A stretch of 64,000 nucleotides of DNA from an uncultured Patescibacteria group bacterium (lineage in GTDB: Bacteria; Patescibacteriota; Microgenomatia; UBA1400; PJMF01). The notes beneath the pieces were generated by a model that saw only the letters and a list, made by a program, of their open reading frames with translations, was not told where the DNA came from and did no database searches. Below are positions 7,413 through 21,254 of this stretch, one piece after another; the stretch's first letter is position 1, and the number at the start of each line of letters is the position of its first letter. The stretch spans positions 203,523-267,522 of the forward strand of contig CAJQIG010000004.1 in assembly GCA_905478415.1 (NCBI GenBank). Direction: 5' to 3'. Position numbers and translations under genes: made by a program.

Positions 7413-8855
7413 ATGAAAACATCAATAAAAATTGTTACACCAGGAAATTTTGCACCACACAAACACTGGTATCCCAAAGCACTTAATGCTCAAATCCACC
7501 CGCTCGTTTCCTACTTTATGAATATGGATAATGAACGAATTATTAGACGCTTTGCATATCTTAACCCATCTGTAAATGCAGATTATTTGAGTACACTATT
7601 GCAATATAAACCAAAGTACTTCAAGTGGGCTGGAGCTGACCTAATGCACACCACCACCACTAAGGGTAAAAAACAAATTGTGGTGATCGAAACAAACTCT
7701 TGTCCTTCTGGCCAAAAATCATTTCCGCTGCTTGATGAAAATAAGGAACAGGGTGGCTACAAGGAACTCATTGAAAAAACATTCCTACCGGTCTGGAAAA
7801 AAAGTCCCATTAAAACAGGTATCACCTGTGTCTTCTATGACAAAAATGAAATGGAAAATAGTGGCTATGCCGCCACAATTGCTGATAGCATTAAAAAACA
7901 AGTCTACTTAGTCGAGTATCATGAAAATGAATATGGCCAAACTGTTCGCTACAACTCTAAAACTAAAACACTTGAACTGCTGCTAAAAGACACATGGACC
8001 CCCATTAGAGCTATCTTCCGCTACGTGACCCAAAAACCTTGGAATCGCCTGCCATTGTTCTCCAAAACTAAAATCTTCAATCCTGTGATAGCTTGCTTAG
8101 CTGGCGGTCGAAACAAGCTCATGGCTTCAAAAGCTTATGACTTCTTAAATGCAGAAATTGCTGAAGCCGGACTTAAAATTCAAACACCAACAACCATTTG
8201 GGATGTTAATAAGAATGAAATTCCCCTCTGGATAGAGAAATTTGGTTACAAAGGAGTCATAAAAATTCCGTACAGCAACGCTGGCCAAGGTGTGTTCACC
8301 ATTGTAAACAAGCAAGAACTGGACGCCTTTATGGAACTTGAAATTCCGTATCAAAAATTTATTATCCAGAGGTTAATTGGGCATTATGCCTGGAGTTCTC
8401 AACATGAAAATGAACTCTTTTTTCAAGTTGGAACCATGCCAAGCAAACGCGGCAACAGCTATGTGTTTGACCTTAGAATGCTCGTCCACCATACCCCAGA
8501 AGGCATGAGGCCTCTTGGTTTATACAGTCGAAAAGCTGGCCTCCCCCTTACCGCAGATATTTCTGGAAAAGAATCAAAAGATGTCCTCATGACCAATCTT
8601 TCTGTCAAAAACGATGATGGTAGCTGGGATAGCGATGTCAGTAGACTGCTCCTCATGGATCAGCGTGACTTCAACAAAATTGGCATGAGCCTCGATGACT
8701 TAATTGAAGGCTATGTCCAGTCGGTACTCTGTGTCATTGCCATTGATAAAATGGCTCAACGATTAGTAAGTACTAAAAAGACATTTAAGAAAAAATTATT
8801 TACCTCACTTAATGATGATGAAACATTACTCAAGGAACTCTTCTCCCATGAGTAA
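7413..8855 (+). CDS. ATP-grasp-like ligase (YheC/YheD/TTL-like), function unknown
   Basis: 480 aa. Contains IKIPYSNAGQGVFTIV and FDLRMLVHH, typical of ATP-grasp B/C subdomains. The stop overlaps the next gene's start (ATGAGTAA). Confidence 0.4.
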   Translation: MKTSIKIVTPGNFAPHKHWYPKALNAQIHPLVSYFMNMDNERIIRRFAYLNPSVNADYLSTLLQYKPKYFKWAGADLMHTTTTKGKKQIVVIETNSCPSGQKSFPLLDENKEQGGYKELIEKTFLPVWKKSPIKTGITCVFYDKNEMENSGYAATIADSIKKQVYLVEYHENEYGQTVRYNSKTKTLELLLKDTWTPIRAIFRYVTQKPWNRLPLFSKTKIFNPVIACLAGGRNKLMASKAYDFLNAEIAEAGLKIQTPTTIWDVNKNEIPLWIEKFGYKGVIKIPYSNAGQGVFTIVNKQELDAFMELEIPYQKFIIQRLIGHYAWSSQHENELFFQVGTMPSKRGNSYVFDLRMLVHHTPEGMRPLGLYSRKAGLPLTADISGKESKDVLMTNLSVKNDDGSWDSDVSRLLLMDQRDFNKIGMSLDDLIEGYVQSVLCVIAIDKMAQRLVSTKKTFKKKLFTSLNDDETLLKELFSHE

Positions 8856-9738
8856 AACACCTTTTGGATGGCTTCTGGTTACAAAACATTCAAACGAGTA
8901 TAAAAAAAGACGTTTGATCGAAGAAGCTGAAAGAGCAGCTATCGATTTGCGAGTTGTCACTCCAGACCAATTTTTACTCCAAAGCACTTCTTCAAAAAAT
9001 GTGATCAGAGACATTCAGACAGGCACTCCAATCGAGGAACTGCCTACATTCGTAATTTCTTTAGTAGTAGTTGAGGAAAAAGATCCACAGGCATTTGTTC
9101 TGATGGAGCACCTTGCTGCTCTAGACTTATTACTCATCAATAACCCAACATCTGTCAGACATGCAAATGACAAAATGGCTACCTATCGAACTGCTGCTAA
9201 GATGCAAATCAGAATACCCACCACTTTTCTGCACATTCCAGGAACACTACTGACTCTGCAGGAGCACATTCAGTATCCCTGTGTCATAAAACCAAATAAA
9301 GGCCTGAAGGGAACAGGAGTAGAACTAGTACAAAATGTAGAAGATCTGACAACACACCTCAATACAGTCTCAGAACCAACACTAGTCCAAGAAGCCATTG
9401 CCGAAAGTAGCGGAAAAGATGTTCGTGTTCTTATGTTGGGAAATAAACCATTAGGATCCATGCTCCGAGAAAGTAACACTTCATTTACTTCAAATATTGC
9501 TACCGGGGGCTCTGCGAAAATGACAACTATTAATCCAAGCTACGTAGACATTGCCACTGCGCTCTTAAAAAAAATGACTATTACCTTCGGCTCAGTGGAC
9601 TTTCTCTATGGGAAAGATGAAATGGTGCTCTGTGAAGTAAATGCTAACCCGGGATTGAAAATGTTTGAAGCCGTCAGCAATCGTAATATCGCAAAAGAAA
9701 TTCTTCTCTACTGCACTAAACAAAGTCATACAAGCTGA
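8848..9738 (+). CDS. RimK-like ATP-grasp ligase (alpha-L-glutamate ligase family)
   Basis: Contains VIKPNKGLKGTGVELV, DVRVLMLGNKPLGSMLRE and MVLCEVNANPG, which are RimK/GshB-type ATP-grasp motifs. The start at 8848 is coupled to the upstream ATP-grasp gene. Confidence 0.6.
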   Translation: MSKTPFGWLLVTKHSNEYKKRRLIEEAERAAIDLRVVTPDQFLLQSTSSKNVIRDIQTGTPIEELPTFVISLVVVEEKDPQAFVLMEHLAALDLLLINNPTSVRHANDKMATYRTAAKMQIRIPTTFLHIPGTLLTLQEHIQYPCVIKPNKGLKGTGVELVQNVEDLTTHLNTVSEPTLVQEAIAESSGKDVRVLMLGNKPLGSMLRESNTSFTSNIATGGSAKMTTINPSYVDIATALLKKMTITFGSVDFLYGKDEMVLCEVNANPGLKMFEAVSNRNIAKEILLYCTKQSHTS

Positions 9739-9783: not shown

Positions 9784-10202
9784 GGGGATGTACTGCTTTG
9801 ACGGAGTATGTTCATTAATATCTGCAGATCTTCTTTGACTAAGAAAGAAGTAAAACAGAGTCAAAACATAATTGCAAATAAAACTGCAAAAGGCATTTTA
9901 GATACTACCACTAATGCATTCGCATCAGTGTTCGGTACTAACTCTGCTCCTGCTTTCATCGCTGCATAAGCTTTGTAACAGGCGTGTATTCTTTTCATCT
10001 CATTGGCGTGAGGGAGTATGCGTAAACCCAGTCAATGTGACAAATAGTTTTCGTTCGTTGAAACTATCATAAGCAAATAGACGAAGATTGTGTCATGAAG
10101 GCTTGTTTGTTTTCCCTCTGACGCAACAACAAGGACAAACTACATCTGTAGATGATATTGGTGCTACTATTTCGGACGCGAGATCATTCCTCGCCATCTC
10201 CA
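9784..10202 (+). ncRNA. ssrA: tmRNA (ssrA), one-piece
   Basis: The 5' end reads GGGGATGTACTGCTTTGACGGAG (compare E. coli GGGGCUGAUUCUGGAUUCGACGGG). The 3' end reads ATTTCGGACGCGAGATCATTCCTCGCCATCTCCACA (compare E. coli AUUUCGGACGCGGGUUCAACUCCCGCCAGCUCCACCA). The 7-bp acceptor GGGGATG/CATCTCC has a G3:U70 alanine identity pair. The T-arm is GCGAG-ATCATTC-CTCGC. An internal open frame ends ...SAPAFIAA-TAA at 9967-9969, typical of a tag peptide. An intrinsic terminator follows. Confidence 0.85.
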
Positions 10203-10212
10203 CAACAATCAA

Positions 10213-10250
10213 AAGAAGAGTCTCGGGCAAGACTCTTCTTTATTTTTTTA
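10213..10250 (+). terminator. Rho-independent terminator of ssrA
   Basis: 11-bp perfect stem AAGAAGAGTCT / AGACTCTTCTT with loop CGGGCA, followed by TATTTTTTTA. Confidence 0.75.
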
Positions 10251-10367
10251 ACTGGTATCAAAAATTATAGCTTTAGTAGTTCCATCAAAATATGCGATAT
10301 GATCACTTTGATTCTAATTGATTTATTTATATGCCTTTAAGAAAAGAAACATGCTCATGATTCAGGC

Positions 10368-10396
10368 TTTACACGTTCACAAATTTAATAAATAAT
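10368..10396 (+). promoter_or_regulatory. Putative sigma70-like promoter for the surface-protein locus
   Basis: TTTACA (10368-10373), 17-nt spacer, AATAAT (10391-10396), about 11 nt before the ATG at 10408. Prediction from sequence only. Confidence 0.3.
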
Positions 10397-10407: not shown

Positions 10408-11436
10408 ATGTCTAATAGAAAACACTTACTACTAGCTGCTGTTTTGTTTGTGGCTTTTTTTGCCCTCTTTCCTAAAAATGCTCAAGCTGCACAACTTACC
10501 GAGGCCTATGTCAGACTTGATCGACTCAAAGCCTCAACCACAACTGGTGGAACGGTATGCGCAAAATTAACAACAACAGGTTCTACAGATACAACTATAA
10601 AAGTAAGCTTTCCTTCAGGTTTTACTGTCGACTCTACAGCTAGCAACTGGACTGTAACCACAACCAATTTGCCGGCAGGTGCCTCAGCCATGCCTGGTAT
10701 TAGCACCGCCTCTTTAGTTGCAAGTCAAGATGTTACTTTTCCAATAACTGACATCTCTTCTGGTGCAACGCTCTACTGTTTCAATTTTACCGGAACCAGT
10801 ACCTTAACAAATCCCACAGCCGGAAATGATAAAACTGGCACCATCACCGTACAGGCAAGTGGACCAACGGAGGTTGATTCTGGTAACTTTGCTCTTTCAA
10901 TTATTTCTGACGACCAGGTAGTTATTACGGCTACCGTTCCAGCTACCTTTAGTGTGGCCCTTGGCACAAACACCCAAGCACTTGGAACGCTGAGTACTGG
11001 TTCTGTTTCGTCTGGATCTGGAGTCTCTGTTACCATTGGCACGAATGCAGGTAATGGTTGGATTGGTTGGGTACTCAGTGCAAATCAAGCACTTGATTCA
11101 GCTACTACAGGTGACACTATCGCTACAACAGGAACTGTTGATGATACTCCAAGTAGTCTCTCTGCTGGTACAGAAGGCTATGTACTTGATGCCGACTTAA
11201 CTACTGATTCTGCAACTGGGGGATCTGGAACTGTAACCATTGATGCCGAGTACTTAGGTGCCGACACTTCTTCGGGAGGTGCGTTGAGTGCAACTTTCAC
11301 TGAGTTTGCTACTGCAAATGGACCAACTGATGGAGATGTCATTACCTTGATCCCTAGAGCTGCCATTTCGGGTCTGACACAAGCTGCCACAGATTATACC
11401 GATACCCTTACCATTGTTGCTGCTGGACACTTCTAG
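10408..11436 (+). CDS. Secreted surface protein, paralog family A (WxL-like?)
   Basis: Sec signal peptide (..FPKNAQA|AQ). The conserved N-domain (YVRLDRLKAS, NWTVTTTNLPAGASAMPG, VTFP, TNPTAG) is shared with 21288..24146. A mid IGWVL motif, the C-terminal motif DYTDTLTIVAAGHF, and a Thr/Gly/Ser-rich composition are shared with 14171..15223. Confidence 0.55.
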   Translation: MSNRKHLLLAAVLFVAFFALFPKNAQAAQLTEAYVRLDRLKASTTTGGTVCAKLTTTGSTDTTIKVSFPSGFTVDSTASNWTVTTTNLPAGASAMPGISTASLVASQDVTFPITDISSGATLYCFNFTGTSTLTNPTAGNDKTGTITVQASGPTEVDSGNFALSIISDDQVVITATVPATFSVALGTNTQALGTLSTGSVSSGSGVSVTIGTNAGNGWIGWVLSANQALDSATTGDTIATTGTVDDTPSSLSAGTEGYVLDADLTTDSATGGSGTVTIDAEYLGADTSSGGALSATFTEFATANGPTDGDVITLIPRAAISGLTQAATDYTDTLTIVAAGHF

Positions 11437-11494: not shown

Positions 11495-12604
11495 ATGATC
11501 AAACGTATGTCTTTCAACTCCAAAAAACTTCTTTTATCTCTTCCTGTCCTGATTATCCTGATCTTTTCAGCCACAACTGTCCGAGCTCAGGAAACTTCAA
11601 CAGCTAGTGCTGAGACAGAAGCAGCTGCAACACCTCCACCAGCCGCCATTCAACCAATAGACTTAACCGTTTCGCCCATCACTCTCAACTTAGCTACTGA
11701 TCCTGGTAAGGAGGTAACTTCGGCCATTAAAGTGTTTAACAATAGCACTGAAAAAGAGTATTTAGAAATCAAGTTAGCTAAGTTCACCGCTGACAGGACT
11801 GGTTCGCGTCCTCAGATTAGAGACTTCGAAGCAAGTGACTCCTATCAAGACTGGCTGCAATTTGAACGGACAACATTCGAAGTGAACCCCGGCGAGTGGG
11901 AAACTATTAATCTTACATTTGCTCCACCTGCAGAGTCGGCTCTGGCTTACTACTATGCAATTATCGTCAAAAGACAAGTTGATACCACTGACGATGCCGC
12001 CACAACCATTGTCACTGGAGCACCTGCCATTTTAGTGCTCGCAAATATTTATTCGCCTAATGCTATTCAAGAGTTACAATTAGTAGATTTTTCTATGAAA
12101 AAAAAATTCTATGAATACTTGCCAGCCGAGTTCGAAATAGATATAAAAAATACAGGTAATATTCATCTCAGCCCACTTGGAAATATATTTATTGACAAAG
12201 GAGATGATAAAGATATTGCCTTACTCTCTATCAATAAAGAAAACGGATTAGTACTTCCTGACTCACAACGAACCTACACAGCAAAATGGACGGAAGGATT
12301 TCCTGTGTACGAACCAGTCATCGAAAATGGTATTGAAAAAAAAGATGAGAAGGGAGAGACAGTCTACAAACTTAACTGGGACCTCTCTAAAATTAATCAG
12401 TTCCGTTTTGGAAAATACACTGCTAACCTTTTATTAGTCTATGATAACGGTGTGCGAGACATTCCCATAGAATCAGTACTGACATTTTGGGTTTTTCCGT
12501 GGAAGATACTATTGGTAGCTCTGCTCCTCGTAGTCTTACTTTCACTGGGAGTGATGTATCCGCTACTTGCGCTCTATGGTAAAGTTAAGAAAAAAGAAAC
12601 ATAA
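11495..12604 (+). CDS. Surface-anchored protein with signal peptide and C-terminal TM anchor (DUF916/DUF3324-like)
   Basis: Signal peptide (..TTVRA|QE). The Ig-like region IDLTVSPITLNLATDPGKEVTSAIKVFNNSTEKEYLEI resembles the conserved core of DUF916 cell-surface proteins. The C-terminal TM is WKILLVALLLVVLLSLGV followed by KVKKKET. Confidence 0.45.
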   Translation: MIKRMSFNSKKLLLSLPVLIILIFSATTVRAQETSTASAETEAAATPPPAAIQPIDLTVSPITLNLATDPGKEVTSAIKVFNNSTEKEYLEIKLAKFTADRTGSRPQIRDFEASDSYQDWLQFERTTFEVNPGEWETINLTFAPPAESALAYYYAIIVKRQVDTTDDAATTIVTGAPAILVLANIYSPNAIQELQLVDFSMKKKFYEYLPAEFEIDIKNTGNIHLSPLGNIFIDKGDDKDIALLSINKENGLVLPDSQRTYTAKWTEGFPVYEPVIENGIEKKDEKGETVYKLNWDLSKINQFRFGKYTANLLLVYDNGVRDIPIESVLTFWVFPWKILLVALLLVVLLSLGVMYPLLALYGKVKKKET

Positions 12605-12610
12605 TTCTAC

Positions 12611-13546
12611 ATGGTATATCGCTTCTGGAATTTTTTTTTAGTAAGTAGCTTACTGTTATTTTTAACAGCAACTGCTCCAATGGCTTTTGCACAAGAAAAA
12701 AACAACTTTTCGCTGACTATTCAACCAGCATACCAAGAAGTTGAGATACCTGAAGATAAGAATAGTGTCGAAACAACGATAACTCTGAAAAATCCTTCTG
12801 ATACAGCCCAACAAATGGAACTATTCGCCTTTGATTTTACCCAAAGTGACCATTTTGGCTCAATTGCTTTGCTCGATGGATTCACCGGCCAGTATGCTCA
12901 TACTCTAGCTTCCTTTTTATCCTTTGAAAAAGACAGTCTCATCATTGCTGCTCAATCTGAAGAAGAAGTCGTCATTAAAATTGAAAATAGAGCTACGCTT
13001 TCTCCTGGAGGTCACTATGCTGCCATAGTAGTTCGAGCAATTGAAGAACAAGGTGCCTCGCAGCAAAAAATACTTCCAGCTGTAACATCGCTTTTGCTGG
13101 TCAGAAAAAAAAGTGGTGAACGTATTAATCTATCCCTAAAAGAACTTAGTTGGCAACCAAAAGCACTGGTAACTCACTTTCCAGAAAAAATTGACTTGAC
13201 TTTCGAGAATGGGGGAAATGTCCATGTTGTTCCAAGGGGCACCGCAGCTATTACAGACATTTTTGGCCGCGTCGTGTTTCAGGGAACAGTTAACGAATCA
13301 AGTTTGTACCTCTTACCAGGAACAATGAGAACAATTTCTACAAACTTACAACAGTCAAGAACTTTTTTTCCACTGATGTTTTATTCTTTAGAAATACATG
13401 GGAGATCAAATGTTGGTGAAGCTACTTTTTCTTCCGAAACTAGTTTTCTGTACGTTGACTGGAAATTTGTTGTGCTTTTGTTGATCATTGTGGGAGCCAT
13501 TATTTTCAGAACGGTACAAAAGAAGAAAAGAAATGAAAAAAAATAA
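12611..13546 (+). CDS. Second signal-peptide plus C-terminal-anchor surface protein (DUF916/DUF3324-like paralog)
   Basis: Signal peptide (..MAFA|QE). Contains SLTIQPAYQEVEIPEDKNSVETTITLKNPSDTAQQMEL, the same pattern as the previous gene. The C-terminal TM is FVVLLLIIVGAIIF followed by a KKKRNEKK tail. Confidence 0.45.
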   Translation: MVYRFWNFFLVSSLLLFLTATAPMAFAQEKNNFSLTIQPAYQEVEIPEDKNSVETTITLKNPSDTAQQMELFAFDFTQSDHFGSIALLDGFTGQYAHTLASFLSFEKDSLIIAAQSEEEVVIKIENRATLSPGGHYAAIVVRAIEEQGASQQKILPAVTSLLLVRKKSGERINLSLKELSWQPKALVTHFPEKIDLTFENGGNVHVVPRGTAAITDIFGRVVFQGTVNESSLYLLPGTMRTISTNLQQSRTFFPLMFYSLEIHGRSNVGEATFSSETSFLYVDWKFVVLLLIIVGAIIFRTVQKKKRNEKK

Positions 13547-14147
13547 CGTTCCCATCACCAGTATTCTGTTCATCAGTGCTGCTATTAGCATCAGCATTGG
13601 TATTTTTTGGTATCTAAGTGGAAACTCTGAGCAAAGAGTCACGGGCGGTCTTTCTGATAGAACCCGGGAGTTCTTAACGTCTCAAAAAGCCAATACTGAT
13701 TCTCTTTGGCCAGACTACACTTTCGAAGAAGGTACTGAACAAAAACAATACCAATCAGTTGAAACTAATTGTTTTACTCTCGAAATGCCCATTCCTGTCA
13801 GGAATCTGAAAACAAGTATCGAACAAGAAAGCTGTTTAGTAAAAGCTACAATTGATACTCCACATGCATTTTTAACTATTAGTTCAGAGCCTGCTCCCAG
13901 CATCCACTCTCTATCAGATCTCTCTGCTGTCAAACTACGCACAACTCAGCCAGATGTGTACACCCAAGAAAAAAGAGAAGAACTTGATAGCCCCAATAGT
14001 ATTGTTTTTTCTACTACCACAGAGGTCGTGTATTTTTACTTAGAAAATGAAACCATTACTACGGTTGCTCTGTATGACCTAGCTACCATTAATTCAGATA
14101 CGTACCAACTCTTAACCAAAGTAGTGAAGTCAGTTGGTATCCAGTAA
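13533..14147 (+). CDS. Membrane-anchored hypothetical protein (N-terminal TM)
   Basis: ATG at 13533 gives MKKNNVPITSILFISAAISISIGIFWYL (TM) followed by a soluble domain. It overlaps the previous gene's end by 14 nt. The track ORF starts at 13488, but that lies inside the upstream gene. Confidence 0.4.
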   Translation: MKKNNVPITSILFISAAISISIGIFWYLSGNSEQRVTGGLSDRTREFLTSQKANTDSLWPDYTFEEGTEQKQYQSVETNCFTLEMPIPVRNLKTSIEQESCLVKATIDTPHAFLTISSEPAPSIHSLSDLSAVKLRTTQPDVYTQEKREELDSPNSIVFSTTTEVVYFYLENETITTVALYDLATINSDTYQLLTKVVKSVGIQ

Positions 14148-14170: not shown

Positions 14171-15223
14171 ATGAAAAAACCAGTTATACTCATGAGCCTG
14201 ATGTTACTAGCCTTTCCGGCCAGCACTAACTATGCTCTAAAAAGTTTTGATTTTAATGCCGGTGGTGATAATTCCTTGAGTTCTTCAAGCTATGCCATGG
14301 AAGGTGCAGTGGGTGAACTAGGGAGCGATCCACTTTCTTCACTCAACTACACTACGCTTCCCGGACTCCTGTATACACAAATGGTGAACACACCATCAGC
14401 CCCAACTGTTACCAATGCTGGAGACTTCACAAATAAACTGTTAGTCACTATTGCTACTGAAGGCAACCCCTCTGACACTACCTATGCCATTGCTGTTTCT
14501 GATGATAACTTTGTCACCACAGAGTATCTGCAATCAGACAATACGGTGGGTGCTACACTCGGAGCTGAAGACTGGCAAACCTATGCCGATTGGGGCGGAG
14601 GTAGTGGAGAGTTTGCAGTTGGGTTAGTTCCTAACACAACCTATTACTTCAAAGTTAAAGCTGCCCAAGGAGAATTTACTGAAGGCCCCTGGGGTCCGGT
14701 AGCATCAGTAGCAACTTCAGCACTGAGTATTTCATTTGATATTGATGTATCTGCAACGGACCAAGAGACAGCAGCTCCATACGCTGTTGCACTAGGAGAT
14801 CTGCAATCGGGAACCATTGTCACCAGTACCGAAAAAATATGGGTTGACCTAGCTACAAATGCACCAGGAGGAGGCTTTGTGTATGTCTTTGGTTCCAATG
14901 GAGGTTTGTTGAGTCAAAAAACAAGTCATACTATTTCAGCCGTGTCAGGAAATTTAAGTAGCTTAGATGAAGGTTTTGGAATCCAATACAACAGCCTTTC
15001 AGAAAGTAGTGGCGGACCAATGGTGGTTTCATCTCCATATGACGGAGCGGGAGAAGTTGTCGGTACTATCACCACAAACCCACAAGAGATTTTCAATACC
15101 TCTGCCACTGCAATTGCTGGCGGAAGAGCTTCATTTGTGACCAAAGCTAAAATTGATGACTTAACTCCAGCTGCAGCTGACTACACTGACACCATTACTA
15201 TTATTTCGACTGCTAGTTTCTAA
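14171..15223 (+). CDS. Secreted surface protein, paralog family A (WxL-like?)
   Basis: Signal peptide MKKPVILMSLMLLAFPAS. The C-terminus AAADYTDTITIISTASF and the mid KIWVDLATN motif are shared with 10408..11436. Thr/Gly-rich. Confidence 0.5.
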   Translation: MKKPVILMSLMLLAFPASTNYALKSFDFNAGGDNSLSSSSYAMEGAVGELGSDPLSSLNYTTLPGLLYTQMVNTPSAPTVTNAGDFTNKLLVTIATEGNPSDTTYAIAVSDDNFVTTEYLQSDNTVGATLGAEDWQTYADWGGGSGEFAVGLVPNTTYYFKVKAAQGEFTEGPWGPVASVATSALSISFDIDVSATDQETAAPYAVALGDLQSGTIVTSTEKIWVDLATNAPGGGFVYVFGSNGGLLSQKTSHTISAVSGNLSSLDEGFGIQYNSLSESSGGPMVVSSPYDGAGEVVGTITTNPQEIFNTSATAIAGGRASFVTKAKIDDLTPAAADYTDTITIISTASF

Positions 15224-15927
15224 TGAACAAGCACCATTCTGGACCCTTTTTTTTTAGATCTTTGCACTTTCTTTTGATTGTAGGTCTTTTTTTTATCTTG
15301 GGACCTCTCTTTCAAGTTTCTGCTTCTTCAGTAGGACCAAAAACTTCACCAGTTTTAGCCGGAACTGTCAAAGTTACTGCTGAAGTAGCTGTTTCACCTC
15401 AACAAAAGTTTTTGATAGCAAAAAACTCATCTCTCATACTACAAAATCAGGGAATACGTGTTGGAAAACCCACTAAACTACACATTACCCTCAGGGGGTA
15501 CCAAAACCAACTCAAACCTTTTCAGGATTTTTCTATAAAAATTGTGGATGCTGATTTTGGTGTCCTTCAAAGCTACTTAGCAAAGACTGACCACACAGGT
15601 ACTGCCACACTTACTTTTATTCCAAATGCTCTCAGTCAGAGAGGTTCTTTTATACAAATTGATGTATTTAATGATAGATATACAACCACACAAGCTATTA
15701 CTTTCAGTACTCAGTATATACAGAACCTACCAAAACTACAAAATAGTTCAGAAAAATCCTTAGTTTTAAATCCTGATAATCGGGTTATATTCGTATTCTC
15801 TACCAGAGGTAAAACTGCTATGCTTACAAGAGGTAGTTATGTATTTTTTACAACCAAAAACACCAGCTCTAAAGGTAATCCGTATCTTTTTGCTGCTCGT
15901 GATGGCCCTTGGACTGTTACTACTTAA
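15223..15927 (+). CDS. Secreted hypothetical protein
   Basis: The start overlaps the upstream stop (TAATG). Hydrophobic signal region LHFLLIVGLFFILGPLFQVSASS. Confidence 0.4.
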   Translation: MNKHHSGPFFFRSLHFLLIVGLFFILGPLFQVSASSVGPKTSPVLAGTVKVTAEVAVSPQQKFLIAKNSSLILQNQGIRVGKPTKLHITLRGYQNQLKPFQDFSIKIVDADFGVLQSYLAKTDHTGTATLTFIPNALSQRGSFIQIDVFNDRYTTTQAITFSTQYIQNLPKLQNSSEKSLVLNPDNRVIFVFSTRGKTAMLTRGSYVFFTTKNTSSKGNPYLFAARDGPWTVTT

Positions 15928-17926
15928 GAACCAGGCAAAGGCGGCCACTGGTATTTACAAAACTATAAACTTCCAAGGAAAAGTCGTAAATAGTGATGGC
16001 ACCAACGTTGCGGATGGAGATTATGATTTTGTCTTTTCTCTCTACACCGTTGACACCGCCGGCTCAGCAGTCTGGACCGAATCACGTACTACCGTTAACC
16101 AAGTCACCGTCACAGACGGTGTTTTTCGTGTAGCTTTGGGTGAGGTAACTACCTTACCCGGATCAATTGACTTTAATACTGATAATATTTACTTGGGTAT
16201 CAACTTCAATAGTGATGGAGAAATGACTCCTCGAGTTCGCTTCACTGCTGTCCCCTATGCTTTTAATGCTCTCAAGGTTGCAGGACTTACTGTCACTGAT
16301 ACCACCGGAACATTAACTGTTCCAGATGCCAGCACCATTGCCTTTTCAGGTGCCTTCGACACCACCTTTACGACTACCAACACAACTACTGTCACCCTTC
16401 CAACTACAGGAACGCTGGCAACTTTGGCAGGAACAGAAACGTTTACCAATAAAACTATTGGTTCAACCGGACTCACCTTTTCTGGCGCAACGACTGACAT
16501 TACCACAGGAACAAATGAACATTTTGTTATCTCTCCGAATGGCACTGGGAATGTTGGAATTGGATCAACAACACCAACCCAATTCTTTGAGGTCCAAAAA
16601 GATACAAATGGATATGCAGCAATGTTAATTGATAACGAAACAAATGACACACTCGCTGCATCAGGATACTTCTTTGAAAACTCTACTAGAGGTGGTGGTT
16701 TTGGACTTTATTCTGATAACTTTACAGGGGGTGGAGGCTTAAGTCACTTGGCGGGTAGAATGGCTACGGCTGGATACAATGGGTTAGAACCACTTGGTAT
16801 AGATCTTATTGCAAACCATGCTAGTGGAGATATCCGATTGTTTACAGGCGGTATTGCAACTTCGAATGAGCGTATGCGAATTGACTCTGCTGGAAATGTG
16901 GGAATTGGTACCACCACAACGAGCAGCTACAAACTTGATGTAACTGGCACTATCCGAGCCACTGGCAGCGTCCTCAGCTCTGATATTGATGCAGATACAG
17001 CCGGGGCTCTTACGATCGGTAACACCACGGCCACTGCAGTCTCTATCTGTAACTCTGCCGCCTGCGACACAATTTCCATTGGCAATAATGCTGACGCAGA
17101 TACCATTACTATTGGTGACTCTCCAGATGGACTAACAATCAGTAGTTCTGGCTTCAACTTAACTTCTGGAGGAGCAATTTCTGGTATCTCTACTTTTGCA
17201 AGTAGCGGTGACTGGACTTGGTCAGCTACCACTCCAACCTTAACACTCAACTCGAGCGAGACCCTCACAATAACAGATGGCACTGATAGTTTTGTGGTTA
17301 ACACAGCCAGTTCATTATTCTCACTTTCTGACGGCAGCAACAGCTTTACCTTTGATGCTGACACTGGGCCTAACTACACTGGAACTGCACGACCAACAAA
17401 AAAGATTGTCATTTCGCCAGAATATGCTGGTGGGACTTTAACAACCTTCTATGGAGCTGGTACCGATGCTTCAATAACTGGAGTCATGACTGCCGATGCA
17501 GAAACTACCGCCACTGACAGCCTCCGCACCTACTATGAATGGAGTAGTTCTCAGGGCTCACTAAACTACTACACCGTCGTAGTCAGGATAACACTACCTG
17601 AAGATTTCAGTGCATGGGCCCCTTCTAACGCCCTACAAGTTGACTTCACCACTGAATCAACAAACTCAGCAAATAACTTACTTAGCGCCTATGTATATCT
17701 AAGTAGTGACTCAACAACCGCAGTAGCCTCAGACGTAAGTAATGCAGCTGCTGGAGCCGAAACTTGGGAACAAATCACTGTTGATGACAGTGTTCTAGAT
17801 GACGCTGCTGCTCCAGAGTGGGATGCTGCTGGAGAAACGGCGCTCATTTACCTCAGAATGGGATCAACTGGCAACAATTTTGCGAGAGTTGGCGACATCA
17901 CCTTAAATTATGTTGCCCGGTTCTAG
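15839..17926 (+). CDS. Large secreted Thr/Gly-rich fibrous protein (adhesin/fibre-like)
   Basis: 695 aa. The N-terminal signal-like region is KVIRIFLLLVMALGLLLLKNQAKA|ATG. About 25% Thr plus Gly, with repeated TTxT/GT motifs. The 5' end overlaps the upstream gene; an alternative start is 15902. Confidence 0.5.
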   Translation: MYFLQPKTPALKVIRIFLLLVMALGLLLLKNQAKAATGIYKTINFQGKVVNSDGTNVADGDYDFVFSLYTVDTAGSAVWTESRTTVNQVTVTDGVFRVALGEVTTLPGSIDFNTDNIYLGINFNSDGEMTPRVRFTAVPYAFNALKVAGLTVTDTTGTLTVPDASTIAFSGAFDTTFTTTNTTTVTLPTTGTLATLAGTETFTNKTIGSTGLTFSGATTDITTGTNEHFVISPNGTGNVGIGSTTPTQFFEVQKDTNGYAAMLIDNETNDTLAASGYFFENSTRGGGFGLYSDNFTGGGGLSHLAGRMATAGYNGLEPLGIDLIANHASGDIRLFTGGIATSNERMRIDSAGNVGIGTTTTSSYKLDVTGTIRATGSVLSSDIDADTAGALTIGNTTATAVSICNSAACDTISIGNNADADTITIGDSPDGLTISSSGFNLTSGGAISGISTFASSGDWTWSATTPTLTLNSSETLTITDGTDSFVVNTASSLFSLSDGSNSFTFDADTGPNYTGTARPTKKIVISPEYAGGTLTTFYGAGTDASITGVMTADAETTATDSLRTYYEWSSSQGSLNYYTVVVRITLPEDFSAWAPSNALQVDFTTESTNSANNLLSAYVYLSSDSTTAVASDVSNAAAGAETWEQITVDDSVLDDAAAPEWDAAGETALIYLRMGSTGNNFARVGDITLNYVARF

Positions 17927-17939
17927 CACAAAAGATACT

Positions 17940-20900
17940 ATGCTCAAGAAAAAAATATTATTCCAAATTTCAAGTGTATTCTTACTCTTGGCTATTCTCT
18001 TAGGATATGTGCTCTTCAAAGGCACTCAGCCAGTCTATGCAAACATCTTTCATTTTTGGTGGAACGAAAACATTACTGAAATTGTCATCCCCAAAGATAA
18101 TTTTGATACCGATGAAAAAATCATTATGCATGTTGATGGGGCAGATAAAAAAAACATCACTGTTGAAGTAAAAGACCCTGCTGGTCATAGCATTGAGATA
18201 GACACCCGACTTTCTAACTCTTCAGATGGCACTGTCGTCACACTACTTCCACCAGAAACAATAACTCCAGGAAAATATACTGTAGAAGTGAAAAATAAAA
18301 AAGGAACGGTATTGAATACTAGTTTCAGTTGGGGAGTACTTGCTATAAATGTCAACCAAGCTCACTACAGACCTAATGATGAAGCTCAACTTTCGTTTGC
18401 TGTCTTGGATGAAAAAGGTGACATGGTCTGTGACGCCGACCTTGAGCTACAAATCATTCAAAAGGCCACCGGAATTATAGACACACTAACAACAAAAGAT
18501 GGCGATATTACCACTAACCCAGAATGTGCTATATATGGCGTCACATATAACCCAGACTATGAAGCCACCTACACTGTTGGAACTCCGGGACAATACACAA
18601 TGGAGCTAACAGCCACAACCACAAATGGTACATACACCGTTACAGACTATTTTGAAGTTGCCGAAACCCTCGACTTTATAGTCGAACGACAAACAGCAAC
18701 TAGAATTTACCCTGTGGTCAGCTACCCCGTTGAAATACGTATTATTCCTAATAACGATTTTAAAGGACAAATTATTGAGACTGTACCCAATACCTTTACT
18801 ATCGAAAAAACAGAAACAGCTGCCCTACAACCAAATCTCATTACGGACAGCTCTTCTACTGAGAAACAACTACTTTGGAATGTAGACTTACAAAAAGGGG
18901 TTGAGTATACTCTGGCTTATACCTACGACGCACCTGACATCAGTCCAGAACTCTTCAGCATTGGCCCCCTGCAAATCCTTGATACTACTAGTGACAAAAT
19001 CTTTTCCGAAAAAAGAAAGTGGAAAATTGCTGTCGATGCCGTCGCCTTTGATGCAGTCACAACTGACAGCGCTAGTGTTGGAAGAAGTAGTGCGTCATTC
19101 TCACATACTACAACTGGATCAGATCGGCTGCTACTCGTTTTTGTCTCTCTCTTTCATGGTAACGCTACTCCAGATGTAACTTCAATTACCTATAATGGCG
19201 TCAGCATGACTCTGGAAACTGAACTAGAAGTTGTTTCAAGCCGCCATATTCGAACATTTGTGTACAGCCTTGTAAACCCAGCCTCAGGATCAAATACTGT
19301 TGCTGTCACCTATGCTCAGTCGACACAGGTTGCAGATGCGGTTATGGCAATCAGCTACACTGGGGTAGATCAAACAACACCAATTCCAACAACTGCAACA
19401 AACTCTTCAACATCAGCTGCTGACCCCACAATTGACATAACCACTACAACTGCCAACTCCCTCATTGTTGCAGGTGCTACAGTTCGTGGTGGTGACACCG
19501 CCCCATTTACTCCAGGTACCGGTAGTACTGAACGCTGGGACTTTGTCACCGATACTAATGCTAATGTTGACCTTGGAACCTGGGGAGGTGAAGAATCAGC
19601 AGCCACAACTGGTACGTATACTGTTGATGCCACGGCCACCAATTCAGACTTTTACTCCATGGTTGCAGTTGAGGTAGCAGAAGTGGCAGCAGCTGGAGGT
19701 ATTACGGTGTCTGGTAATGCCTATCAATCTGGAACCACGGCTTTAACCGACTGTGATGGGACCACTCAAAACATAGCACTCCGAGCTGGAAGTACTACCT
19801 ATACCACCACCTGTAATGCTTCAACTGGTGCATGGTCCATTGGTAGCGTAACGCAACCAAGCTCAGGTGACGGACTCGTTGTTTGGATTGATGGCGAAAC
19901 TACTGACGGAGCACTTGTCACCCGCTACGATGGCACAGGCGACTCAACTGGAAATATTTTTTATGCAAATGCGCTCACTTTTACAAGTGATGATAGTACC
20001 GCTGTTAACAACGCTGATGCAGACACCTATGACAATGCTGATGATGCTGATATCCCCTACACTGTCTCCACCAATGCTTTGACCCTTAATAGTGGCCATG
20101 AACTACTTGTCTACACAGGTAAAACCTACGACCCAAATGGAACTGTTACCACTAATGCAACCGGTGGTAATCTTCATGTTGATGATAGCTCCACCGCATA
20201 TCTCGACACTGCCACTTCAACTATTGGTGCTGATGTTATAGTTGATAACGGAGCAACACTTAATATTGATGCCACAACAAACATTTCTGGTGGAGATATC
20301 ACCTTAACTGGAACAGGCCTTGTTTCCACTACTACTGGGACTCCAACTACAACTATTTCTGGAGCAGGCACTATAGGCGGCGGCACTGGCTCACTCACCT
20401 TCTATAACCTTGCGCTTGCAGGGACCGGTACCACAACACTAAACGCACCACTCACTACTGCTAATAACCTCACGATTGGTGACGGCACCAATGCTCATAC
20501 GCTAGATGTAGAAACAAACGACAAGGCTGTCGACACCAATGGAGCATTCACTATTGCTGCCAATGGAACCTATACTGCCTCATCCACAACAGATGTAACT
20601 GTACAAGGAAACTTTACCAATGGGGGCATTCTTACTGAAGGAACAAGCACCATTGTCCTAGACGGATCTACCACAGCTAATCTTGATTCTGGTTGCAGCA
20701 CCGTATCCACATGTACAACCAACAACCTGTATAACCTTACCTTGAATAAGTCGACGTCAGGAACTACGGTAACGCTTCTCAACACAGGGCTGAGAGTTAG
20801 CAATACGCTTGAAATTACTACTGGAACTCTCAACCAATCAACCCTCGATGTGCAACTGGAGGGCAGCTCAGCGCTGGGAGTCACGAGCAACGGTACCTGG

Positions 20901-21254
20901 TCAAATACATCTACCGGCAACCTTACCTTAGGTGGATCTGTTTCAATTAATGGCACTATGACCCTTCAGGGTAATGGGGCCAGTTGTGGTGATACCGACA
21001 GTATTGTCATCAGCTCAACGTCTGGTGGAACACAACAGACCTGGAATGGAACTGGCACAACCACTATTAATGATGTGACCATCTCAGACCAGTCAGGAAC
21101 GATGTTGATCAATGCCCTCAGTTCAACTAATGCCGGTAATGTAAACACAAACTGGAGTATCTTCGGTGGCTGTAGTACTACTCCCGACCCCAACGAGCTC
21201 CTTCGCCATGGCGAATGGTTTTCTGGTGAGGTGAATCAAAAATTCAGTTTTTGA
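17940..21254 (+). CDS. Giant secreted beta-helix-like repeat protein (adhesin-like)
   Basis: About 1100 aa. Signal and TM region MLKKKILFQISSVFLLLAILLGYVLF. Long runs of T/N/G-rich short repeats (TLNxxTxxxGG, NGTxT) are reminiscent of parallel beta-helix adhesins. Confidence 0.5.
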   Translation: MLKKKILFQISSVFLLLAILLGYVLFKGTQPVYANIFHFWWNENITEIVIPKDNFDTDEKIIMHVDGADKKNITVEVKDPAGHSIEIDTRLSNSSDGTVVTLLPPETITPGKYTVEVKNKKGTVLNTSFSWGVLAINVNQAHYRPNDEAQLSFAVLDEKGDMVCDADLELQIIQKATGIIDTLTTKDGDITTNPECAIYGVTYNPDYEATYTVGTPGQYTMELTATTTNGTYTVTDYFEVAETLDFIVERQTATRIYPVVSYPVEIRIIPNNDFKGQIIETVPNTFTIEKTETAALQPNLITDSSSTEKQLLWNVDLQKGVEYTLAYTYDAPDISPELFSIGPLQILDTTSDKIFSEKRKWKIAVDAVAFDAVTTDSASVGRSSASFSHTTTGSDRLLLVFVSLFHGNATPDVTSITYNGVSMTLETELEVVSSRHIRTFVYSLVNPASGSNTVAVTYAQSTQVADAVMAISYTGVDQTTPIPTTATNSSTSAADPTIDITTTTANSLIVAGATVRGGDTAPFTPGTGSTERWDFVTDTNANVDLGTWGGEESAATTGTYTVDATATNSDFYSMVAVEVAEVAAAGGITVSGNAYQSGTTALTDCDGTTQNIALRAGSTTYTTTCNASTGAWSIGSVTQPSSGDGLVVWIDGETTDGALVTRYDGTGDSTGNIFYANALTFTSDDSTAVNNADADTYDNADDADIPYTVSTNALTLNSGHELLVYTGKTYDPNGTVTTNATGGNLHVDDSSTAYLDTATSTIGADVIVDNGATLNIDATTNISGGDITLTGTGLVSTTTGTPTTTISGAGTIGGGTGSLTFYNLALAGTGTTTLNAPLTTANNLTIGDGTNAHTLDVETNDKAVDTNGAFTIAANGTYTASSTTDVTVQGNFTNGGILTEGTSTIVLDGSTTANLDSGCSTVSTCTTNNLYNLTLNKSTSGTTVTLLNTGLRVSNTLEITTGTLNQSTLDVQLEGSSALGVTSNGTWSNTSTGNLTLGGSVSINGTMTLQGNGASCGDTDSIVISSTSGGTQQTWNGTGTTTINDVTISDQSGTMLINALSSTNAGNVNTNWSIFGGCSTTPDPNELLRHGEWFSGEVNQKFSF

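Follow-up and report, generated by a model that had tools for sequence, protein, structure and literature searches.

A WxLIP-related protein pair as candidate membrane-anchored chaperones or anchors of a Pam-like fibre in Patescibacteria

Two tandem genes in a stretch of DNA from an uncultured Patescibacteria group bacterium encode exported, membrane-anchored proteins, here called P1 and P2, which in our judgement are probably donor-strand chaperones and/or anchors of a fibre akin to the Pam pilus of the Candidate Phyla Radiation (CPR). The stretch, referred to below as the window, comprises 64,000 nucleotides (nt) of contig CAJQIG010000004.1 (GenBank assembly GCA_905478415.1, positions 203,523 to 267,522). 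The evidence that carries this reading consists of the two open reading frames (ORFs) and their topology signals, a two-domain fold, homology to the WxLIP proteins of Firmicutes, a likeness of fold to the chaperones of chaperone-usher systems, a conserved gene order and a PamT-like module in a neighboring protein. The two genes are best filed as unannotated members of the WxLIP superfamily that probably act as chaperones or anchors of a Pam-type CPR pilus.

Architecture of P1 and P2 and their relation to WxLIP

The two genes are as follows.

11495..12604, plus strand: P1 (C1-type), 369 residues; signal peptide (residues 1-31), beta-sandwich domains, transmembrane (TM) helix, Lys-rich tail
12611..13546, plus strand: P2 (C2-type), 311 residues; signal peptide (residues 1-27), beta-sandwich domains, TM helix, Lys/Arg-rich tail

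Both ORFs were found at these coordinates on the plus strand, with a spacing of 6 nt, and identical P1 and P2 are called on at least 16-18 public metagenomic contigs, among them a 658-kb scaffold. The original prediction assigned a signal peptide to each protein, and the expected signals are in place: a basic n-region, a hydrophobic core (Kyte-Doolittle peaks of 2.15 in P1 and 1.95 in P2, 19-residue window) and an AxA-like site. Cleavage and membrane orientation were derived from classical rules, including the positive-inside rule. On these rules, the N-terminus of P1, MIKRMSFNSKKLLLSLPVLIILIFSATTVRA, would be cleaved before QETS (TTVRA/QE), and that of P2, MVYRFWNFFLVSSLLLFLTATAPMAFA, before QEKN (PMAFA/QE). 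In P1, a spacer rich in Pro, Thr and Ala (residues 32-54), which P2 does not have, directly follows the signal peptide. Two beta-sandwich domains come next, at about residues 55-190 and 191-334 of P1 and 33-170 and 171-283 of P2; the second domain of P1 carries an insertion of about 30 residues (approximately 266-300) relative to P2. Each protein ends in a single hydrophobic helix (P1, about 335-358, with its core at 338-356 and a hydropathy of 2.7; P2, about 284-299, hydropathy 2.35) and a basic tail (KVKKKET in P1, RTVQKKKRNEKK in P2), just as had been proposed.

The relatives of these proteins come from one scan of the GTDB species representatives, which returned 491 species-level loci; ORFs resembling P1 and P2 are termed C1-type and C2-type, respectively. 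Counts of gene order and of conserved features refer to 79 related loci drawn from the best 80 of the 491. Those best 80 are all metagenome-assembled genomes (MAGs) of CPR type, and the locus of Candidatus Mycosynbacter amalyticus, the source of the Pam pilus, lies outside them. Within the 79 loci, the C-terminal hydrophobic helix is kept in 93 of 96 C1-type and 59 of 70 C2-type homologues, and the K/R-rich tail in 84 of 96 and 66 of 70, respectively. Conservation of this helix and tail is far beyond chance.

AlphaFold2 models, computed from the family alignments, have predicted local distance difference test (pLDDT) values of 87.5 for P1 and 91.2 for P2. These are confident models: each starts with a helix, continues with two all-beta domains and ends in a long helix; the two beta-sandwich domains of the models agree with the immunoglobulin (Ig)-like character first attributed to the proteins. 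When these models were compared with the Protein Data Bank (PDB) by Foldseek, WxLIP from Enterococcus faecium (9i1y and 9i25) took the first three places for P2 and was joint first for P1, with E-values of 2e-11 to 1e-10.

WxLIP (also CscA or Duf; PF06030 plus PF11797) belongs to the WxL/Csc clusters of Firmicutes. It has been described as stabilizing and anchoring WxL proteins, and its second domain has been called the “host-binding domain” (Hassan et al. 2023, PMC10599100); entry 9i25 is described as the solved complex of WxLIP with a long WxL protein. P1 and P2 have the same architecture and, at about 310-370 residues, fall in the same size range. Neither protein is recognized by standard family models, with no match to PF06030 at E<=1, none to PF11797 and nothing relevant in the Pfam and NCBIfam scans. 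The families behave differently from the single sequences. When 57 C1-family and 53 C2-family members were scanned, matches to PF06030 (WxLIP_PGBD, the former DUF916) appeared below threshold in 19 of the former (best E 1.6e-6) and 21 of the latter (best E 6.6e-9). PF11797 (WxLIP_HBD, the former DUF3324) was nearly silent, with one of the 53 C2-family members matching at E 0.062.

Profile comparison by hhalign was made with 80 diverse WxLIP representatives out of 1731, obtained by an exhaustive search of representatives; this set was used instead of an earlier search seeded with a fragment of EfmWxLIP1, which had yielded just 10 near-identical fragments. Over their full length, the C2 and C1 families match WxLIP at 98.4% and 98.0%, respectively, and reversed controls stay at or below 6%. 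The corresponding E-values of 1e-13 to 1e-15 are inflated by the contributions of the signal peptide and TM segments, and the profiles were therefore trimmed. The trimmed ectodomains still match at 93.5% (C2, E 2e-7) and 88.8% (C1, E 2.5e-6), and domain 1 alone at 95.7% and 94.1%. A second, independent alignment, built from six plasmid genes whose annotation reads “DUF916 and DUF3324 domain-containing protein”, gives 93% for both ectodomains. Among the controls, cross-domain comparisons between the CPR and WxLIP proteins reach at most 8%, P2 domain 1 scores 19% against its own domain 2, and the pilin-like families described below score less than 1%. The alignment of WxLIP with P1 and P2 runs collinearly from domain 1 into domain 2. 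It also pairs the P1 segment IDLTVSPITLNLATDPGKEVTSAIKVFNNSTEKE with the WxLIP consensus YFDL.v.P.q.QtL.v.l.N.sdk, which is the Ig-like motif pointed out at the start. In a profile search of 177,635 PDB sequences, the best matches of the C2 family were two EfmWxLIP1 entries (E 0.013, 154 positions). The C1-family profile retrieved matches to ETV6 only in this search, which we regard as spurious.

These comparisons identify P1 and P2 as remote homologues of WxLIP, and the case is best for the DUF916 half and for the overall architecture. The suggested resemblance to DUF916/DUF3324 anchors is thus borne out by the family-level PF06030 matches, by the ectodomain alignments (89-93%) and by the leading structural matches. 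Of the two halves, the DUF916 domain was detected (94-96%) and the DUF3324 domain was silent by itself. A hallmark of WxLIP, the motif NQIDKxxxYFDLK, is missing: in the hhalign alignments, the C2 family has an 11-residue gap at this place, and the C1 family aligns over part of it without the NQIDK residues, having ..INLT.SP...NL.TDPG instead.

Paralogy, chaperone-like fold and the domain-1 hairpin

P1 and P2 are themselves homologous. BLASTP aligns them with 23% identity over 260 residues (E 3e-8), and the profiles of their families match over the whole length (hhalign 99.9%, E 3.5e-34). C1 and C2 occur together in 70 of the 79 loci, and in 67 they are adjacent with C1 first; the median gap between them is -4 nt. 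Nearly all chaperone-like ORFs (165 of 166) favor one of the two proteins, their E-values against P1 and P2 lying 10 or more orders of magnitude apart. This clear separation rules out a recent tandem duplication. The duplication that had been read from the tandem arrangement is therefore genuine, yet ancient: because the two types co-occur, pair and stay distinct, it predates the divergence of several CPR classes. A further, more recent copy of C1 is present in 18 of the 79 loci.

All named homologues and loci are from CPR bacteria, including Microgenomates, Levy-, Morani-, Shapiro-, Gottesman- and Saccharibacteria. Many of the cluster-bearing GTDB genomes are third-party annotation MAGs whose titles read “uncultured Pseudomonadales”, “Gammaproteobacteria”, “Bdellovibrionales” or “Terrimonas sp.”. 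To judge from the genes present, these titles seem to be placeholders or wrong labels and not a sign that the cluster extends beyond the CPR.

The original prediction held that the proteins equally resemble chaperone-like Ig folds, and Foldseek agrees. Directly after WxLIP, the list for P2 contains more than 40 chains of chaperone-usher chaperones, and in that for P1 CfaA and CsuC follow WxLIP. The chaperones matched are CfaA, CsuC, YadV, Caf1M, DraB, FimC, CupB2, SafB, SfaE, FaeE and EcpB; these chains have a probability of 1.0, E-values of 1e-10 to 1e-8 and template-modelling scores (TM-scores, normalized to the target) of 0.47-0.63. Chaperones such as PapD/FimC, CfaA, CsuC and Caf1M (PF00345/PF02753) have the same boomerang of two Ig-like domains, and the long terminal hairpin of domain 1 in P1 and P2 lies where the F1-G1 donor strand is found in the chaperones. 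A difference is that the chaperone-usher chaperones are soluble, whereas P1 and P2 are anchored by their C-terminal TM helices. PF00345 and PF02753 match neither P1 nor P2 and are outside the 25 most frequent Pfam families listed for either family.

The hairpin is formed by the two final strands of domain 1, which a long loop connects.

11936..12052, plus strand: P1 hairpin (residues 148-186); F1-G1-like, proposed donor-strand element
12995..13120, plus strand: P2 hairpin (residues 129-170); F1-G1-like, LSPGGHYAAIVVR ... LPAVTSLLLVRKKSGE, best-conserved block in the C2 family

In both families, the strongest conservation of domain 1 falls on these two strands and their loop. The P1 hairpin reads ALAYYYAIIVKR...GAPAILVLANIY, and the invariant YYY/R and GAPA..L residues cluster in it; the block of P1 with the highest conservation comprises the last two strands and the juxtamembrane motif FW.(P)W. 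In P2, residues P132, G133, G134, H135 and Y136 are invariant and K166 and G169 nearly so. The hairpins of P1 and P2 lie where PapD-like chaperones have their F1-G1 donor hairpin, and their counterpart in the alignments with WxLIP is a long, charged hairpin of domain 1. Residues 166-174 of P1 have pLDDT values below 50; in the model, this low-confidence loop is as expected for a segment that would become ordered upon binding.

The operon and its comparison with the Pam pilus

P1 and P2 lie within a co-directional block whose members and borders are listed here.

9784-10205, plus strand: transfer-messenger RNA (tmRNA) gene (Rfam 95.7 bits, also found by ARAGORN), with a long predicted tag peptide, ANKTAKGILDTTTNAFASVFGTNSAPAFIAA
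10212..10241, no strand assigned: bidirectional terminator-like hairpin (12-13 bp stem, T-runs on both strands), parting the tmRNA gene from the fibre operon
10368..10396, plus strand: promoter-like TTTACA-17-AATAAT, 12 nt upstream of pilA; candidate operon start
10408..11436, plus strand: pilA, exported pilin-like protein of 342 residues with a signal peptide; candidate major fibre subunit
13533..14147, plus strand: sm, 204 residues, one N-terminal TM helix, no family; the first 14 nt overlap the end of the P2 gene
14171..15223, plus strand: pilB, exported pilin-like protein of 350 residues with a PamT-related N-terminal module, an FN3-like middle and a C-terminal domain (CTD); candidate tip or initiator
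15223..15927, plus strand: protein of 234 residues with an N-terminal hydrophobic segment, no family; homologue in one of the 79 loci
15839..17926, plus strand: tail-fibre-like exported protein of 674-695 residues, depending on the start codon (NCBIfam Bdello_MAT_N, E 5.8e-8); candidate adhesin
17910..21254, plus strand: exported Ig/MG2-like repeat protein of 1114 residues, with sub-threshold matches to MG2 (E 5e-6), Filamin (0.013), Y_Y_Y and WxLIP_HBD (0.071)

The core of this arrangement recurs. In about 70 of the 79 loci, C1 and C2 follow one pilin-like gene and precede another, after which comes a tail-fibre-like gene. Across the loci, the layout is strikingly conserved and takes one of two forms, pilA(1-3)-C1(1-2)-C2-[sm]-pilB-fibre or pilB-pilA-C1-C2-fibre. 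Homologues of pilA are present in 69 of the 79 loci, often in two or three copies, right upstream of C1; those of pilB are present in 68, typically once per locus. The pilB family has a mean column identity of 55%, compared with 45% for pilA. The two proteins share a CTD of about 160 residues with the motif DY.DTLT......F (hhalign 99.2%, E 1.4e-19); that of pilA, of about 165 residues, ends in the conserved ..AATDYTDTLTIVAAGHF, and neither protein has a TM anchor. In pilA, no Pam model or other Pfam or NCBIfam family was matched. The N-terminal module of pilB has repeated S.NY motifs and matches the NCBIfam model NF058579 (CPR_pilus_PamT) at E 1.1e-4 in the window protein and in 23 of 51 family members, the best at E 4.4e-11; it precedes an FN3-like insert, at about residues 75-185, that weakly matches fn3 and monobody entries. 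From its sequence, pilB looks like a composite of a PamT-like module, an FN3-like insert and the shared CTD.

The sm gene is also called on identical public contigs. Homologues of sm are found between C2 and pilB in 34 of the 79 loci, all of the pilA-C1-C2-sm-pilB arrangement, and sm may be an extra assembly or anchoring factor. It is the N-terminus of the tail-fibre-like protein that matches Bdello_MAT_N, a model for the mosaic adhesive trimer fibre of Bdellovibrio. A homologous tail-fibre N-terminus is encoded downstream in 37 of the 79 loci, on proteins of 500-2600 residues; this pattern suggests a conserved attachment module with exchangeable distal parts that may bind hosts. The 1114-residue protein, whose WxLIP_HBD (PF11797) match is at residues 225-252 and whose C-terminal region is rich in Thr, Gly and Ser, occurs in three of the 79 loci. 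Its gene ends the co-directional block, and the next gene is convergent. The promoter-like site upstream of pilA is a consensus match only, and the regional count of such sites is not above the shuffled expectation. Small ORFs in 10088-10340 are considered spurious because the tmRNA gene and the terminator occupy this interval. Farther upstream (7413-9738, plus strand), a gene for a 480-residue protein overlaps one for a 308-residue ligase of the RimK/ATP-grasp type; the two may form a peptide-ligase pair and are unrelated to the present finding.

The system that this operon calls to mind has been described in a preprint on the CPR parasite Ca. Mycosynbacter amalyticus (Troman et al. 2026, 10.64898/2026.03.03.709456). 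The thin filaments of that organism, whose structure was solved there, are donor-strand-exchanged polymers of PamA and PamB; PamC (WP_260763277.1) and PamD (WP_260763284.1) are predicted to be FimC/PapD-like chaperones with a signal peptide and an unusual C-terminal TM helix; PamT is described as a tip pilin; and PamR (WP_260763282.1) is a proposed membrane-anchored, RbmA-like terminator with two FnIII domains. A tail-fibre-like gene and ATP synthase are conserved neighbors of the Pam genes, and distant homologues of the pilins are reported in Microgenomatia. This description fits P1, P2 and their operon closely. P1 and P2 resemble PamC and PamD, as the latter are described rather than in a comparison of sequences, in their CPR host, signal peptide, FimC/PapD-like fold and C-terminal TM helix. 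In each system there are two such paralogues, differing by an extra beta-hairpin or insertion, within a cluster that encodes exported pilin-like proteins of about 35-39 kDa with a shared CTD, a PamT-related protein and one resembling a tail fibre. The exported proteins pilA and pilB, with their shared CTD and the partial PamT match of pilB, may be Pam-type pilins, which have a beta-sandwich N-terminal domain, a donor strand in the linker and a truncated Ig-like CTD. Neither a PamR-like gene nor one for a 55-kDa PamA-like protein is evident in the operon of the window, and among the 110 family members scanned with NCBIfam none matched PamC or PamD.

The likeness to WxLIP extends to genetic context, as the WxLIP gene and the genes of P1 and P2 alike are set between genes of secreted proteins with a common CTD. 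The two systems differ in that Firmicutes have one WxLIP per locus, whereas the CPR loci have two paralogues and pilin-like, Pam-related partners. Clusters of the form [small LPXTG protein]-short WxL-WxLIP-long WxL were seen on large plasmids of Bacillus, Listeria, Enterococcus, Lactococcus and Melissococcus; this layout, an anchored double-Ig gene among genes for secreted proteins that share a CTD, mirrors that of the CPR operon. The Pam preprint never mentions WxL, DUF916 or DUF3324. Our full-text literature search found no paper that relevantly links WxL proteins with donor-strand mechanisms, and a link between WxLIP and Pam is absent from the papers searched.

Proposed mechanism, alternatives and meaning

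We propose that P1 and P2 are exported by the Sec pathway and stay fixed to the outside of the cytoplasmic membrane, with the C-terminal helix spanning it and the Lys-rich tail in the cytoplasm. Each would expose an L-shaped, PapD/WxLIP-like pair of beta-sandwich domains. Together with pilA, sm, pilB and the tail-fibre-like adhesin, C1 and C2 belong to a CPR-wide operon that most likely builds a Pam-type fibre without an outer-membrane usher. The shared CTD of pilA and pilB would be caught by a chaperone as these subunits emerge from Sec, and the hairpin at the end of chaperone domain 1 would be inserted as a complementing beta-strand; the conservation of this hairpin, its F1-G1 position and its alignment with the WxLIP hairpin are the grounds for this strand-capture proposal. 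The subunit would then be handed to the growing fibre by donor-strand exchange, and one of the two proteins may keep the basal subunit and thereby anchor the fibre to the membrane. Having two paralogues would allow separate subunit specificities, as has been proposed for PamC and PamD, of which P1 and P2 may be the equivalents. Among the eight operon proteins, Pfam yielded no usher-family match. To our knowledge, CPR bacteria are without an outer membrane.

A number of results weigh against this proposal. At the level of the chaperones, hhalign comparison with seven E. coli chaperone-usher chaperones reaches at most 9%, which is not significant; we accordingly reject sequence homology to the classical chaperone-usher chaperones, and the PapD-like kinship is one of fold only. 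As for WxLIP, domain 2 alone is likewise not significant (6-7% by hhalign), and the Pfam signal of domain 1 is no stronger than that for fn3_5, another E-set family matched by many homologues; part of the domain-1 signal is generic E-set similarity. As for the Pam pilus, the PamT match of pilB spans just the N-terminal 60-75 residues, covers no more than the N-terminal third of the PamT model, lies far under the 240-bit cut-off and is accompanied by no other Pam model. The gene order here (pilA-C1-C2-sm-pilB) differs from PamC-B-R-D-E-A-T. The preprint stresses the neighboring ATP synthase, and a motif search (the sole search made for it) revealed no signature of the ATP synthase alpha or beta subunit in the window. 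Finally, that PamC and PamD act as chaperones is, in the preprint too, no more than a prediction.

It is conceivable, but in our view unlikely, that P1 and P2 are static anchors, as is proposed for WxLIP and its WxL proteins in Firmicutes: by strand complementation they would permanently bind the CTDs of the two pilin-like proteins, pilA and pilB, and possibly that of the fibre protein too, forming a membrane-tethered surface complex and no pilus. WxLIPs are, after all, their closest relatives in both sequence and structure and have the identical architecture, and their described role is the stabilization and anchoring of WxL proteins (PMC10599100). The logic of the clusters is also similar, with one or two anchors, two secreted proteins that share a CTD and a large adhesin adjacent. 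What speaks against static anchoring is the nature of the partners. PF13731 (WxL) matches none of the eight operon proteins and none of 104 pilA and pilB family members, and pilA is often multi-copy, as major pilins are. Moreover, pilB carries a PamT-like module, filaments have been observed by experiment in the system to which PamT belongs, and CPR cells do make such thin filaments (10.64898/2026.03.03.709456). Because pilin-like genes flank P1 and P2, a CPR Pam-like pilus is more likely than a WxL/Csc complex. The same facts bear on the anchor topology of WxL complexes that had been suggested for the pair: the signal peptide, two Ig-like domains, TM helix and basic tail do match, but no WxL protein is nearby and the hallmark motif is missing. 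We conclude from the absence of NQIDKxxxYFDLK and of WxL partner proteins that P1 and P2 are not members of a WxL cluster.

By eye, the C-termini of the pilin-like proteins (..DYTDTLT[IV]..A..F) and an internal TNA..GW resemble WxL motifs (Y..t[LI].W.L..aP and D.RG...GW), and the similar look of Y.DTLT..A and Y..tL.W.L prompted a test. The candidate reading of the pilin CTD as a divergent WxL domain was not supported: hhalign gave 0.2% against one WxL protein and 0.2-0.4% against an alignment of 15 WxL sequences from plasmid loci, the latter equal to the values of reversed controls.

Also improbable, we believe, is a division of labor in which P2 alone is a chaperone and P1 is the equivalent of PamR, that is, an RbmA-like, C-terminally anchored terminator or tether; this alternative overlaps with our own model. 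RbmA, a biofilm scaffold of V. cholerae, shares with PamR and with our proteins two tandem Fn3/Ig-like domains; it is secreted and has no TM helix, whereas PamR has one at its C-terminus. It was found among the Foldseek matches of P1 (rank 9, E 5.5e-10) and not among the top 50 of P2, and P1 has features of its own in the spacer of about 23 residues, the domain-2 insertion of about 30 residues and the conserved FW.(P)W. Further, M. amalyticus has three anchored proteins, namely PamC, PamD and PamR. The TM-scores of the RbmA match are low, however (0.21-0.23), and CfaA, CsuC and WxLIP are equal or better matches for P1. P1 and P2 are also collinear homologues, both with the conserved hairpin, and no conserved extra N-terminal strand is evident. 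The duplication of C1 in 18 of the 79 loci suits subunit-specific chaperones better than a single terminator.

Very improbable is the notion that P1 and P2 are themselves adhesins or receptors whose Ig-like ectodomains bind host or matrix ligands without interacting with their neighbors: Ig/Fn3-like folds are common in adhesins, there are sub-threshold matches to fn3_5, CARDB and NPCBM_assoc, and WxLIP domain 2 bears the “host-binding” name, but ectodomains of about 250-300 residues would barely clear the envelope, the strongest conservation is on the inter-strand hairpin and the membrane-proximal strands whereas the host-binding surfaces of adhesins usually vary between lineages, and the close, conserved linkage to pilin-like genes, with translational coupling (the C1-C2 gap has a median of -4 nt), speaks for one common machine.

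The reading of P1 and P2 as donor-strand chaperones and/or anchors of a Pam-like fibre thus remains the one that we favor. What it adds is a reproducible homology between CPR proteins and WxLIP, which suggests a shared mechanism of strand complementation and, possibly, shared ancestry. We raise, tentatively, the possibility that one ancestral monoderm system gave rise both to the WxL/WxLIP (Csc) clusters of Firmicutes and to the Pam-like pilus clusters of the CPR; in that system an anchored, PapD-like protein would complete the fold of secreted subunits as a strand donor, without an usher. If this is true, the Pam pilus would gain an evolutionary origin, a matter that the preprint leaves open; WxLIP would be recast as a chaperone or assembly platform, and some WxL clusters would be predicted to build short fibres. 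One would also have to ask whether the chaperones of Gram-negative chaperone-usher systems branched off from this lineage as soluble forms.

A substantial part of bacterial diversity belongs to the CPR, or Patescibacteria; these bacteria live attached to host cells, and their surface machinery is almost wholly unannotated. The P1/P2 pair is a case in point, as it is invisible to Pfam and NCBIfam and its family is present in at least 491 species-level genomes; the family alignments could yield proper models for the annotation of CPR genomes. The homology to WxLIP joins two systems that have been studied separately and offers a testable mechanism for both, namely complementation by the domain-1 hairpin. 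For the bacteria themselves, the pilin-rich operon is probably the assembly core of thin host-contact filaments like those seen in Candidatus Mycosynbacter amalyticus.

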